Below, one piece after another: positions 41,875 through 45,683 of a DNA stretch of 64,000 nt. The DNA is taken from the sequence record PZ445489.1; one strand, given 5' to 3'. A program made the position numbers and the translations under genes. This DNA is from a phage. How positions within the stretch are numbered: the first letter of the stretch is position 1; every line of letters begins with the position of its first letter. Below the pieces are notes generated by a model. It was given only the letters and a program-made list of their open reading frames with translations. It was not told the DNA's origin and searched no databases.

Positions 41875-42117
41875 TTACGATTCCTTGAGCAGAGAAGAAA
41901 GTTCAGCATATACTTTATCTAACTCAAACCCTATGCGAAGGGATACGTTAGTCCTCCGTTGTTTAAGTAACCATTCGGATATGTTAGGGATGCCAGCTAA
42001 TCTGTGTGGTACCACCCTACATAGCTTTTCCGAAGTATCATAAACAGGAACTTTACGTTCTTTTACTGGAAACTTCCTTGTTTCCCATTTTTTATTCTTC
42101 ACTGTCATTTCTAGCAC
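41875..42117 (-). CDS. Hypothetical protein
   Basis: 80 aa ORF; overlaps stop region of large ATPase gene. Confidence 0.35.
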   Translation of the reverse strand: MLEMTVKNKKWETRKFPVKERKVPVYDTSEKLCRVVPHRLAGIPNISEWLLKQRRTNVSLRIGFELDKVYAELSSLLKES

Positions 42118-44881
42118 CTAGCTCTGACATTGCTTCATCATGCATATGTTTTTCCTCGTCAGTCATGAACTTATAAGGAATTGGCATACACTCGATTTTA
42201 CAATAGGTTCTGTACCAGTCTACAATATTTTCAGTGTTCATATCCTTACCAATACCCATCATACCAAGATACATTCTTGCATATTTTGGGTTAGCACTCT
42301 GACCTGTTTTAAGGAAGAAATCTTTCTTCTTACCTTTCAGAGCTTCTATGAATGGTTTGATAGTGACATTTGAACACTTCTTAATATCTTCCCAGAACAT
42401 CTCGTGCATTTTATGGAAGAATGCCGCTCGATCATTCGGTTTATCCTTGATATACTGTTCAACATGCTCAACTGTTACATCTTTAATAGACTCAAGATGA
42501 TAATAGCGAACAAGAAGTAGTTTAGCTTCATACGCATCCGCATGACGTGGAGCACAATAATCCGGAGTTGAATGTAGAATAGCTTTGATTCGCTCTTCTG
42601 TGTATTCTTTACCAGCACCTTCAATAGTTCCCCAGCTTTCGCTGAAAATATCAATAGTTGCACCCTGATCAAGCAAGTAATAACGTAAAGTACTAGTATA
42701 GTTCCTAGATTCCAGCTCTCTGCGACGTGCGTATAATTGCTGTGCTAACTCCGGCCAACCTTCATCAATATTATATTGCTCAGAACCTGCAGAGAACCCA
42801 CTAGTGGATTTATCAATAAAATAATAGATATTCTGAGCACCACGGTCGCGCCTGATTGCTTGGAAACGCATGTTTGGCGCTTGGTTACTAGTTCTAGTGA
42901 TAACGAATACGTTATCAAAATAGTTGAAGTCAACACCACTCGTTACGGATGGACTACATAATAAGCAATCAATTTGTTGATCAATTAGCTCATTAGTTGT
43001 GTAATCCAGAATACGTCTAATATCTACATCAGATGTAGAGTTTGAGTGGATTTCCTTAACTAACGCACCCGTATTACGACGCAATGCCATGCCCTTCTCA
43101 TTCAGTTCATCTGGACCACAGTCAGATACTAGGATAGATTTCTCACCCATCTCTAGAGAAGTCTGAAGTGCAACCCAAATACTGGACTCATCAGGGAACT
43201 CATAAGCATGAGCTTTTGACAGCATTTTACGGTGATGATTGTAAAATGCAACCGGTTTATCAAACTCAATCAAAGAACCATATGCTTCAATTGTTTCTGC
43301 ACTAATATCCCCATCAGATAATATAATGATTTTTGCAGTTGCAAGAATGTCCCGAAGAACCTGAATACATTCACGACGTTGTTTAACAACCGGGGCGAAT
43401 AATAGGTCATTCATTACAGCGTCACATTCATCGATAAAGATTGCATCAATTTGACCAATAAAACTCTTGAACTTATGCAAAGAGTGAATAGTTGTGGACA
43501 TACGGTCAATAGCACCACGCTTAAAATTAAGCATATCTACAGACTTATCATATTGTCCTGCACTAAATTTCTTAGCATTTGAAGATACCAGTGCTCGAGT
43601 ATTGGTAATTGCTAAGAAATTACCTTTAATAACTCCTGAATCCAGCCAACGCACAACCGCTGTAGTTTTACCTGTACCTAGACTTGCTTTTACAAAAGTC
43701 ATATAACCTTCTGGTGGCACGGTATTTAATTTCAAGAAGTTATCAGTTTCTAGAGAATTAGTTTCTAGCTTTTTAAGTGGAATACCTTTTAAAACATCTG
43801 GTATATCACGTTTAGAATTATTAACAAACGCTTTCAGAGCCTGTTTACGACCGTTGTTAAAATAATCTTGAATATTACGACTATTATCTTTAGTTGCAAT
43901 ATACTCAGATAAAGCTGGGCGGATCTCCTTCTCTAGCCAGCCAAAATCTACACCATCCTCTAGTGCTCGGTGATAGAGTTTAGGAATAATACGTAGATAT
44001 ACACCATCCTCAGCTTCTTCTAATTCGCTGATAGTTTCCTCTACTTTATCAGAGGCAGCTTTTTTACCTTTAATTTGGTCGAGTAAAGAATAGAACTCCT
44101 CCTTAAACTCACCTCTAGTTGTTTCATAGTCAACTAGATTATTAGGTAAATTTACTTTTGAGCCTTTAACAAATACCAGACGTGAAGTACCCTCCGCTTT
44201 AAACGGATCTACTATACCATCAGTAAATAAAGGATCTGCAAAGTAATGGAGCTGTACGGAAGAGTAATAAGCTAAGTCGGCAATATCAAAGCCATACTTT
44301 TGTCTACTACTTTCGTTGATAGATGTAAATAAGAACTTGATTTGACCCTGAGTTACTTTAACATTAGATTCTAGTATTAAGTGCATTCGGATACCTGGTT
44401 TTAGCCCAGCCGAAGATGACGCATGAGCGATAAACCCTGCATCAAGAGGAAACATATCCTCACTAATACTATTTAACATCCTAATAATATGTCGAGCCAT
44501 GCCAACAAGATCAAACTTGTTACAACCTCCTGTATCTACAATACCATCCACATCCATTGCGATTATATGACTTGGATTAGATACATTAAAGTTGCCCTTC
44601 TTACGTCGCACATTATTTTTAGGTGCAAGACATCGACCTCGTACCGCAACGATATGAGGGTCAGACGTTAAACGTCTCATAAGAGGAAGCATTTCTACTA
44701 GGGTTTGAGGATCAACTTCATCAATTACATCAAACTTGAAGGGCATTGAAGCTGGTTTACCTTCAGGATGCTTTGAGGAAAATCTTTTAGCAAAAAGATA
44801 ATCTTCTGCTTTAACTTCTCGCCAATTGCCTGTGGCTAAATCGCGATGAAATCCTGCATGACCTTGTAGGATTGAAAACAC
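42092..44881 (-). CDS. Large replication-associated ATPase/helicase (origin-binding-protein-like)
   Basis: Walker A ASLGTGKTT and Walker B AIFIDECD; start placed at GTG with AGGAG 7 nt upstream (track gives TTG at 44959). Confidence 0.6.
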   Translation of the reverse strand: MFSILQGHAGFHRDLATGNWREVKAEDYLFAKRFSSKHPEGKPASMPFKFDVIDEVDPQTLVEMLPLMRRLTSDPHIVAVRGRCLAPKNNVRRKKGNFNVSNPSHIIAMDVDGIVDTGGCNKFDLVGMARHIIRMLNSISEDMFPLDAGFIAHASSSAGLKPGIRMHLILESNVKVTQGQIKFLFTSINESSRQKYGFDIADLAYYSSVQLHYFADPLFTDGIVDPFKAEGTSRLVFVKGSKVNLPNNLVDYETTRGEFKEEFYSLLDQIKGKKAASDKVEETISELEEAEDGVYLRIIPKLYHRALEDGVDFGWLEKEIRPALSEYIATKDNSRNIQDYFNNGRKQALKAFVNNSKRDIPDVLKGIPLKKLETNSLETDNFLKLNTVPPEGYMTFVKASLGTGKTTAVVRWLDSGVIKGNFLAITNTRALVSSNAKKFSAGQYDKSVDMLNFKRGAIDRMSTTIHSLHKFKSFIGQIDAIFIDECDAVMNDLLFAPVVKQRRECIQVLRDILATAKIIILSDGDISAETIEAYGSLIEFDKPVAFYNHHRKMLSKAHAYEFPDESSIWVALQTSLEMGEKSILVSDCGPDELNEKGMALRRNTGALVKEIHSNSTSDVDIRRILDYTTNELIDQQIDCLLCSPSVTSGVDFNYFDNVFVITRTSNQAPNMRFQAIRRDRGAQNIYYFIDKSTSGFSAGSEQYNIDEGWPELAQQLYARRRELESRNYTSTLRYYLLDQGATIDIFSESWGTIEGAGKEYTEERIKAILHSTPDYCAPRHADAYEAKLLLVRYYHLESIKDVTVEHVEQYIKDKPNDRAAFFHKMHEMFWEDIKKCSNVTIKPFIEALKGKKKDFFLKTGQSANPKYARMYLGMMGIGKDMNTENIVDWYRTYCKIECMPIPYKFMTDEEKHMHDEAMSELGARNDSEE

Positions 44882-45380
44882 AACAATACTCCTGTATTGG
44901 AAATGAAATAAGTTTTCTTTAGGACTATTCAGAAAGAATAGAACAACTGTTACTGTCAATTTCTCAACAAATTAATCGCAAATACTGAAGGGGGGTGGCA
45001 ACTTCCCCTTTCACGCTACACTGCCGCTTCACTATACCGCACAAATCCTTGAGGATGGCCGCTAAGCCAGATTTGCTCACCTAATGCTTCATGTACTAGC
45101 TCATACTAGATGTAGTATACCTTACGTCATCACTTCTCAGAGTTTTTCACTCTTCCCGTCTCACTTCACAACCACCTCACACTAGGTTGCTTCGAGGCCT
45201 TACCAGGGTTCCTACGGGATGTAGATCGCTAAGTATTCTATTAACTATTTGTTTAAAAACTAACACGTAACAGTTAAAACAACCCTTAATGGGGCAGCCT
45301 AACTGTTCCGTATCGCGGATTGTAAACAAGAAAAATTAGCAAAATCAATTTTTACTAATGTCTCTCAATTCAATATAAAT

Positions 45381-45409
45381 ATTATATCAAGATTTTGGGC
45401 ATCATGCAA
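45381..45409 (-). promoter_or_regulatory. Early promoter driving a ~400-nt ORF-free transcript region
   Basis: TTGCAT-17 nt-TATAAT with conserved downstream box; no start codon or RBS follows for ~480 nt. Confidence 0.55.
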
Positions 45410-45449
45410 GTAAAATTTTCCGGATGGTGCTATCATTGGTCTTGAGTAC

Positions 45450-45478
45450 GGATAAAACCGAGCCAAAATGACTCGGTT
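45450..45478 (-). terminator. Rho-independent terminator at end of Sir2-containing operon
   Basis: ACCGAG-loop-CTCGGT hairpin followed by TTTTA on - strand. Confidence 0.6.
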
Positions 45479-45485
45479 ATGTGGA

Positions 45486-45683
45486 TTAGACACTTAAAAT
45501 ACTTCTAATCTCTTCTATATACTTATCTACTTTTTTAGCATCTACTTTATTTAGTTTTCCTATATCAAAACTAGGATCAGTAAACATTCTAGCTATCTCT
45601 ATCTCTAGAGACTTACTAATTTTCCCTGTAGTATTCCACTTAGAAATCTTACCTTTTATTTTCCAAAATTCCTTATTCATCAT
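45486..45683 (-). CDS. Hypothetical small protein
   Basis: 65 aa, Lys-rich; last ORF of the operon. Confidence 0.4.
   Translation of the reverse strand: MMNKEFWKIKGKISKWNTTGKISKSLEIEIARMFTDPSFDIGKLNKVDAKKVDKYIEEIRSILSV

Follow-up and report, generated by a model that had tools for sequence, protein, structure and literature searches.

A large conserved structured RNA predicted in the leader of the D2 helicase gene of T5-like phages

We examined the stretch that separates a strong early promoter from the D2 helicase gene on the minus strand of a T5-like phage DNA of 64,000 nt (PZ445489.1, hereafter the window), and comparison with its relatives points to one large structured RNA of about 440-450 nt with several domains rather than to a small hairpin leader. 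From the sequence we infer that the region templates the structured 5' leader of the mRNA of D2 (T5.108). We rate the RNA as an undescribed, large structured family that is specific to the Demerecviridae and fixed before the initiator helicase gene; a literature search in which most subscription journals were beyond reach returned no description of this leader RNA.

T5 is a classic model phage whose replication origin and control of the initiator helicase are unknown, and an RNA that occurs throughout the family with strong covariation, measures about 450 nt (770 nt or so at most) and stands directly before the initiator gene offers a handle on both questions. The RNA is missing from Rfam and appears as "hypothetical proteins" in some genome records. 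It joins the few large structured RNAs of bacteria and phages that have no known function, and its two interchangeable core alleles together with an optional 97-nt domain provide a natural experiment.

Results

Transcription signals and boundaries of the leader

The features of the region are given below in the order of transcription; helices are predicted, and coordinates are those of the window.

45451-45478, minus strand: intrinsic terminator of the upstream operon, AACCGAG-loop-CTCGGTT followed by TTTT (inverted repeat I13)
45381-45421, minus strand: T5-type early sigma-70 promoter, with an A/T-rich block upstream of the -35 box
45327-45367, minus strand: P1, 5'-terminal two-part hairpin, GAGAGA.AUUAGUAAAA-loop-UUUUGCUAAU.UUUCUU
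45291-45308, minus strand: single-stranded linker and most conserved block, GAACAGUUAGGCUGCCCC (consensus AUACrGAACAGUynGGCUGC)
45232-45276, minus strand: 5' arm of the P2 rod, an A/U-rich long-range helix that closes the central domain
45013-45229, minus strand: central core, closed by P3 and part of the multi-helix region of about 245 nt enclosed by P2 (covariation, folds and models)
45229-45219 with 45021-45013, minus strand: P3, closing helix of the core (covariation)
45218-45139, minus strand: 5' sub-domain of the core, P4-P6
45138-45131, minus strand: conserved GAGAAGUG within the core
45121-45031, minus strand: three-way junction whose hairpin tip is the near-invariant GCUUAGCGGC (45067-45058)
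44987-45012, minus strand: P10 hairpin (GAAAGGGG / CCCCUUC), with compensatory changes
44944-44986, minus strand: 3' arm of the P2 rod, partner of 45276-45232 (folds; inverted repeat I1)
44925-44941, minus strand: small hairpin after the rod, CUAUUC-UUUCU-GAAUAG (single-sequence folds)
44879-44924, minus strand: A/U-rich, apparently unstructured spacer, then the Shine-Dalgarno sequence and GTG start (sequence reading and alignment)
42092-44881, minus strand: D2 / T5.108 "replication origin binding protein", 929 aa, an SF2 helicase and proposed initiator (Pfam and PHROG)

The leader promoter sits precisely where an earlier note on this DNA had placed it (TTGCAT-17-TATAAT, 45381-45409), with its -35 box at 45409-45404, a 17-nt spacer, an extended -10 TG at 45389-45388 and its -10 box at 45386-45381 (all minus strand), and transcription probably starts near 45374 on the same strand. 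A generic promoter scanner missed this site for the sole reason that TTGCAT agrees with TTGACA at three of six positions. The T5 RefSeq record lists its counterpart among the annotated promoters, and 51 of the 52 relatives examined have an equivalent strong promoter at a distance of 470-770 nt before the start of the helicase; the equivalent site scores 10-11 of 12 in the Pectobacterium, Providencia and Vibrio relatives. The terminator at 45451-45478 shields the leader promoter from transcription of the upstream operon; its counterpart is annotated in both T5 and Stitch, and it is kept in an alignment of ten records. We also considered a second, internal promoter (TTGATT-18-TACAAT, 45348-45319), which is unlikely to matter and is split by the 97-nt insertion in 51 genomes.

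Translation of the helicase starts at GTG 44881-44879 (minus strand), preceded by the Shine-Dalgarno sequence AGGAG at 44893-44889 (minus strand), and not at the mechanical TTG 44959; the GTG reproduces the 2790-nt CDS annotated in relatives. The TTG, apparently the gene boundary used in the earlier note, falls within the structured RNA. The distance from the transcription start to the start codon is about 490 nt, and the core of the leader RNA takes up about 440 nt. In the T5 RefSeq record the corresponding 470 nt between the promoter and T5.108 ("replication origin binding") stand without annotation, and no larger unannotated gap occurs in the 14 kb of T5 annotation examined. The minus strand between 44000 and 46500 yielded no terminator-like site, and neither did the Pectobacterium or Providencia leaders. 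Because a promoter is present, a terminator is absent and synteny is strict, we treat the leader RNA as the 5' part of the D2 transcript.

Several genes and signals around the leader vary among relatives. Upstream of the terminator the window contains a 65-aa gene (45486-45683, minus strand; PHROG 29527, unknown function) that is also found in Baret and NR01 and is missing here in T5, where T5.107 is followed directly by the terminator. Some relatives carry a putative homing-endonuclease gene directly upstream of the leader, e.g. mar003J3 (L006:116-568), whose leader stands under a different promoter (TTGCAAGGGAGTATTATTTTATAGTATAAT) with the transcribed sequence from GAGAGA on unchanged; promoters of the TTGCAAGGGAGTATTATTTTATAGTATAAT type were also observed in L022, L028, L035, L070 and L072. 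In two clades a promoter-like site separates the RNA core from the start of D2: TTGATG-17-TATAAT at L011:1205-1233 and TTGACA-18-TATAAT at L047:about 1488-1517, the latter position by deduction. The leader of Vibrio phage pVp-1 contains a hairpin that resembles a terminator and has a U-rich tail (L013:641-662); it follows the leader promoter at a distance of about 50 nt, belongs to a 5' module kept among Vibrio phages, and is a possible attenuator observed in the Vibrio clade only.

Architecture of the predicted RNA

The conserved fold spans 45367 to 44925 on the minus strand, in the same orientation as the helicase gene, and the two sequence alleles of the region, A and B, adopt the same architecture in single-sequence folds despite their different central sequences. 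The earlier note had offered a structured leader as one of its suggestions, and this is supported and was understated, the conserved fold being about 440 nt long and co-oriented with the helicase gene with no terminator in between. The geometry of P1 (outer stem, bulge, inner stem and a loop of 4-5 nt) is identical in all clades, with differing sequences, and UUGAGAGA is kept at the 5' end of the leader throughout the enterobacterial clades. We take UUGAGAGA to resemble the initial transcribed region of strong T5 promoters. The linker GAACAGUUAGGCUGCCCC is common to alleles A and B and to the Klebsiella and Pectobacterium phages. The P2 rod of alleles A and B comprises about 40-45 bp in runs of 10, 11, 11 and 7 bp separated by single-nucleotide bulges; the sequence of allele B differs on both arms and the helix is the same. 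Rods comparable to P2 are predicted in the Pectobacterium and Providencia phages, and the small 3' hairpin has counterparts in Klebsiella (CUAUC-CUU-GAUAG) and Pectobacterium (CUUUCC-UA-GGAAAG) phages.

A purine-rich stretch noticed previously is present at about 45181-45120. The AAGGGG/CCCCTT hairpin that had been described as lying just before the helicase gene is also real, with compensatory changes in five of its seven pairs, and lies 106 nt upstream of the true start; it is P10, an internal helix of the larger fold, and its conserved 11-nt loop includes AGUUGCCACC (45003-44994, minus strand). The sequence that follows this hairpin (45012-44987) is AGUAUUUGCG, which is not a U-tract, and no G+C-rich hairpin directly followed by a U-tract, as in an intrinsic terminator or attenuator, was observed. 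The suggestion of an attenuator therefore fails on the missing U-run after P10, on the lack of a minus-strand terminator and on the internal position of the helix. A small RNA, also proposed, does not fit as worded, given the size of the element and its lack of a 3'-end signal; a stand-alone RNA could arise only through processing.

Some further pairings were considered and set aside. The hairpin formed by ACGGAACAGUUA in the linker (45300-45311) and UAACUGUUACGU in the 5' arm of the rod (45265-45276) is an inverted repeat (I4) in which 11 of 12 positions pair in allele A. Its formation would compete with P2 closure, and it is not kept in allele B or in the Pectobacterium phages; it is possibly a folding intermediate or a switch in allele A. 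Sequestration of the Shine-Dalgarno sequence was rejected, the predicted pairings lacking covariation support: variation in the pairing of UUCUUG with CAGGAG, which touches the Shine-Dalgarno region, is almost wholly one-sided, and variants L072 and phA11 disrupt the pairing of GCGAUAC with GUAUUGU.

Covariation, strand and stability

An alignment of seven allele-A variants, two Pectobacterium phages and one Klebsiella phage was submitted to RNAalifold, which predicted 106 pairs. Conservation and covariation across T5-like genomes, which the earlier note had put forward as a check, favoured a conserved fold: 53 of the 106 pairs exhibited compensatory changes, compared with 17.8 +/- 3.0 in shuffled alignments (0 of 500 reached 53) and 13-17 in slid registers. 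The percentage of paired cells was 93.7% as against 84.1% (shuffled) and 36-45% (slid), the paired fraction being inflated by prediction of the structure from the same alignment; this shared origin does not explain the threefold excess of double changes. Compensation above controls on one strand, the general mark of a conserved structured RNA, was accordingly observed with a structure that derives from the alignment itself.

Compensatory changes were distributed over the fold. Fifteen of the 27 pairs in the P2 rod (helices 5-7) were compensatory, and in the outer rod AACUGUUAC/GUAACAGUU of allele A is replaced by AACUAUUAC/GUAAUAGUU in allele B. P3 alternates between CUACA/UGUAG and CUGCG/CGCAG among close allele-A phages (two compensatory pairs), and the stem of P10 occurs as AAGGGG/CCCCUU, GAGG/CCUC and UAAGGG/CCCUUA with the loop unchanged. 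The three-way junction together with P10 was made into a covariance model (R1), which matched allele B at the syntenic place with E-values of 0.006-0.02 and Providencia weakly (E 0.14), and did not match the Vibrio-phage leaders. In the R1 alignment, which leans towards the model, 27 of 36 pairs were compensatory, compared with 17.4 (shuffled) and 9-17 (slid).

Eighteen pairs were mainly G-U, which the opposite strand would present as A-C, and the predicted folding energy favours the sense over the antisense strand by 24 kcal/mol. Both results assign the fold to the strand that the promoter transcribes. Thermodynamic z-scores were -2.7 for allele A, -3.8 for allele B and, with mononucleotide shuffles, between +0.5 and -5.7 for the other clades. 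Since these scores are modest, the case is built on covariation and not on thermodynamic stability. We regard the existence and conservation of the structure as solid.

Coding potential

The gene-free stretch reported earlier as about 400 nt is real and is longer, with 499 nt between the -10 box and GTG 44881 and no credible or conserved ORF on the minus strand. It had also been described as free of ATG codons; three occur, each stopped after 2-3 codons. The two mechanical ORFs in the leader (50 aa with a TTG start and 38 aa with a GTG start) are not conserved and had no match in a PHROG search, and the leader of phage Stitch contains no sense ORF of at least 25 aa. A conserved ORF in relatives, named beforehand as the result that would overturn a non-coding leader, was looked for, and none was found that keeps its position and frame. 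Phage Baret (OR896834.1, L001:1455-1957) is annotated with three "hypothetical protein" CDSs inside its leader, which are not conserved and are very probably gene-caller artefacts.

That the stretch consists of unannotated small protein genes, for which the Baret annotation and the two mechanical ORFs of the window might be cited, or of non-functional spacer or DNA-level sequence, is highly implausible: the ORFs begin with TTG or GTG, lack PHROG matches, shift or disappear among relatives and are absent from Stitch, the alleles differ by indels that are not multiples of 3, the substitutions are paired-site compensation and not codon-like, and conservation that spans subfamilies argues against a spacer.

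Comparison with known RNA classes

The earlier note had been unable to fold the region into a tRNA, and ARAGORN agreed, returning 0 tRNA or tmRNA genes in the whole window. A search of the 64 kb against Rfam 15 at gathering thresholds, likewise suggested there, returned no match to any family, among them riboswitches, GOLLD, ROOL, 6S, RNase P, group I/II introns and small ribozymes. With permissive E-values the interval 44800-45500 gave only sub-threshold matches (best E 0.14; 10-18 bits against gathering thresholds of 36-56), to archaeal and fungal C/D-box snoRNA families and the sRNA sraA.

Alleles, insertion and distribution

By BLAST, the stretch is 99.6% identical to Escherichia phage phiLLS and is found in 538 phage records. 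In the ten-record alignment the first 105 nt or so and the last 80 nt or so are nearly identical, and the central 300 nt or so occur as two alleles, equal in length and widely divergent. The window, Baret, NR01, IME178 and STG2 carry allele A, and T5, Stitch, STyj5-1 and others carry allele B. The core alleles (window 45013-45229 versus L002/L036, Stitch and T5) cannot be aligned between their near-identical flanks, and GGCUUAGCGGCCA is the sole island common to the central parts in the ten-record alignment. Allele A has motifs in common with the Pectobacterium and Klebsiella phages that are missing from allele B of T5. Motifs common to the enterobacterial clades and allele A include UUGAGAGA at the 5' end, AUACrGAACAGUynGGCUGC, GAGAAGUG, GCUUAGCGGC and GGrAGUkrCCACCCC. 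The RNA allele tracks D2, with 99% identity in the D2 N-terminal region accompanying allele A and 87-91% accompanying allele B.

The layout of terminator, strong promoter, gene-free leader of 470-770 nt and D2 homologue was observed in every Demerecviridae clade sampled, namely Tequintavirus, Epseptimavirus, Sugarlandvirus (Klebsiella), Hongcheonvirus and My1-like phages (Pectobacterium), Priunavirus (Providencia), contig L047 and the Vibrio phages. The Vibrio leaders repeat the pattern of conserved ends and a variable centre seen in alleles A and B; their homology is argued only from position, architecture and short motifs. Pattern scans of viral, metagenome and genome collections recovered only T5-like contigs, always with the RNA upstream of D2 (7 in IMG/VR; 8 true and 3 chance matches in metagenomes; 4 chance matches in 185,579 bacterial genomes), and the chance matches were confirmed as negative by the covariance model.

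An optional insertion of 97 nt occurs directly after P1 in 51 phage records, once per genome and in both allele backgrounds (NR01, L003:1584-1680; also L007, L008, L025, L038 and L050), and the corresponding point in the window lies between 45337 and 45336. It is bounded by an 8-nt direct repeat, TTTTTCTT, leaves P1 intact, and folds into its own stem-loop, in which the closing pair changes from G-C to A-U with compensation. The insertion behaves as an expansion domain and not as a mobile repeat.

A 2.4-kb record labelled "Listeria phage LM 4-11-1" (OR847565.1) is 98.4% identical to the present T5-like segment and is probably a mislabelled or contaminant fragment.

Discussion

Our preferred explanation, held tentatively and with somewhat less than even confidence, is that the leader RNA acts on the D2 message, chiefly in cis. 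The 5' end of the mRNA would be protected or stabilised by P1, and a protein of phage or host origin, perhaps D2 itself, may dock at the invariant loops (UUAGCG in GCUUAGCGGC; AGUUGCCACC). A protein bound there would set the amount and timing of D2 synthesis or the life of the message. P2 could plausibly be cut by RNase III, which would detach the core from the translated portion. The linkage between RNA allele and D2 allele counts in favour of a cis-acting leader. Against it, known translational operators are much smaller and simpler than this element, and the Shine-Dalgarno sequence and start lie in an A/U-rich, apparently unpaired spacer for which the touching pairings lack covariation. The exchangeable core also counts against it, since alleles A and B share only the GCUUAGCGGC junction, which is not obviously expected if a conserved protein binds an operator. 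The extra promoter-like sites in Pectobacterium L011 and in L047 hint at expression of D2 independent of the leader.

The T4 gene 32 and gene 43 operators and the ompA-type 5' hairpins resemble the leader RNA in their location between promoter and ribosome-binding site, in the 5'-terminal hairpin and in co-transcription with the gene. They differ in measuring tens of nucleotides and overlapping or abutting the ribosome-binding site, whereas the leader RNA has about 440 nt and no fewer than 12 helices, with some 30 nt between the end of its structured part (44925) and the Shine-Dalgarno sequence (44893).

In another reading, which we consider rather unlikely, P2 would be an RNase III processing stalk from which the core of about 245 nt is excised as a stable trans-acting RNA or RNP scaffold, with a role in e.g. 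host takeover or counter-defence, and D2 would simply be the next gene on the transcript. The core lies inside a near-continuous duplex of at least 20 bp in five of six clades (the Klebsiella rod is less regular), and in the predicted folds the stalk reaches the length associated with RNase III processing (at least about two helical turns enclosing an RNA). The rod is kept by compensatory changes (helices 5-7), and the sequence inside the rod has the character of an exchangeable cassette, as alleles A and B illustrate and as the Vibrio phages repeat. Invariant loops and an optional expansion domain are typical of autonomous structured RNAs, and the promoter-like sites between core and D2 in two clades fit the same scheme. 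The excised RNA would, on the other side, lack a 3'-end signal, its cleavage is deduced from helix length alone, and the pattern scans never found it away from D2; no trans target or partner was identifiable.

Known RNAs offer two partial parallels for an excised core. RNase III stalks of rRNA precursors and T7 early mRNA likewise place a long, near-perfect duplex around a structured domain in a longer transcript; P2 differs from them in its bulges every 10-11 bp and its A/U-rich composition, and its cleavage is predicted from the fold. GOLLD, ROOL and phi29 pRNA are similarly large and phage-borne, with many helices, invariant loops on variable stems and optional expansion domains, and the function of GOLLD and ROOL is unknown, as is that of the leader RNA. 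The leader RNA differs from all three in having no Rfam match, no tRNA in the window, a fixed place before one gene and a range of one phage family.

In a further reading, which we judge unlikely, the promoter and the folded, G-rich RNA would mark the primary origin of T5. The RNA would serve as a persistent hybrid or primer (cf. ColE1 RNA II and the T4 oriF/oriG R-loops) or as an origin activator, and the adjoining gene would encode the initiator helicase that loads there. Electron microscopy by Bourguignon and colleagues in 1976 reportedly placed the main first-round origin of T5 near the centre of the molecule, and the site, at 48.7% of the T5 genome, agrees with that position. The adjoining gene is a proposed replication initiator related to plasmid Rep proteins, and the transcript is richer in G than in C (G 0.24-0.30 and C 0.16-0.21 in relatives) behind a strong, conserved promoter. 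This G-over-C skew, however, continues across the neighbouring coding regions, and the cumulative GC skew turns at about 23 kb and about 51 kb of the window rather than here, tracking gene orientation.

Further points count against an origin. Between 44700 and 45700 we observed only short repeats in two or three copies, at chance level, and no iterons or other direct repeats, and the A/T-rich arms, which in an iteron origin might form an unwinding element, pair with each other with compensation. No plus-strand promoter-like site for a ColE1-type antisense regulator was found inside 44925-45367. The compensatory changes keep intramolecular helices, which an R-loop model does not require, and the T5 origin has never been mapped to sequence. 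ColE1 RNA II and the T4 oriF/oriG transcripts share with the leader RNA a strong promoter, a folded non-coding transcript of a few hundred nucleotides and nearby replication functions. The leader RNA differs from them in having no RNA I-type antisense promoter, no mapped origin and no sequence similarity, and it runs into a protein gene.

Elements of these readings can be combined. A large, ornate RNA confined to the Demerecviridae might be cut from the D2 leader at P2 and act with D2 at the T5 primary origin as a primer or loading scaffold, with the A/B core giving specificity between the RNA and its partner (protein or DNA); we consider this combination improbable.

The D2 gene and its annotation

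The protein encoded at 42092-44881 has a PF02399 match at aa 394-533 and belongs to PHROG 3712, and its helicase part resembles the NCBIfam plasmid replication protein CyRepA1 (E 7e-35, below the family cut-off). The motifs IIAMDVDG and PGIRMH in its N-terminal region (44282-44881, minus strand) are invariant or nearly so across the Demerecviridae. We take them to resemble, on sequence, the catalytic motifs of archaeo-eukaryotic primase-polymerases. A PDB profile search with the N-terminal region returned no match, and a single-sequence AlphaFold model of the N-terminal 390 aa had a pLDDT of 35, too low to be interpreted.

D2 has been described as a bipolar SF2 helicase and proposed replication initiator (Wong et al. 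2013, PMC3632103), and the 929-aa protein of the window is the same protein as the D2 of that study. The names in the T5 RefSeq record (NC_005859, L016, 7546-11827) conflict with this usage: "D2 helicase" is attached there to T5.111, and the biochemically studied D2 is T5.108, which has PF02399 at aa 392-532. Odd names of homologues were also observed for neighbouring genes, including "U3 small nucleolar RNA-associated SSU processome protein 25" and "tail tube protein".
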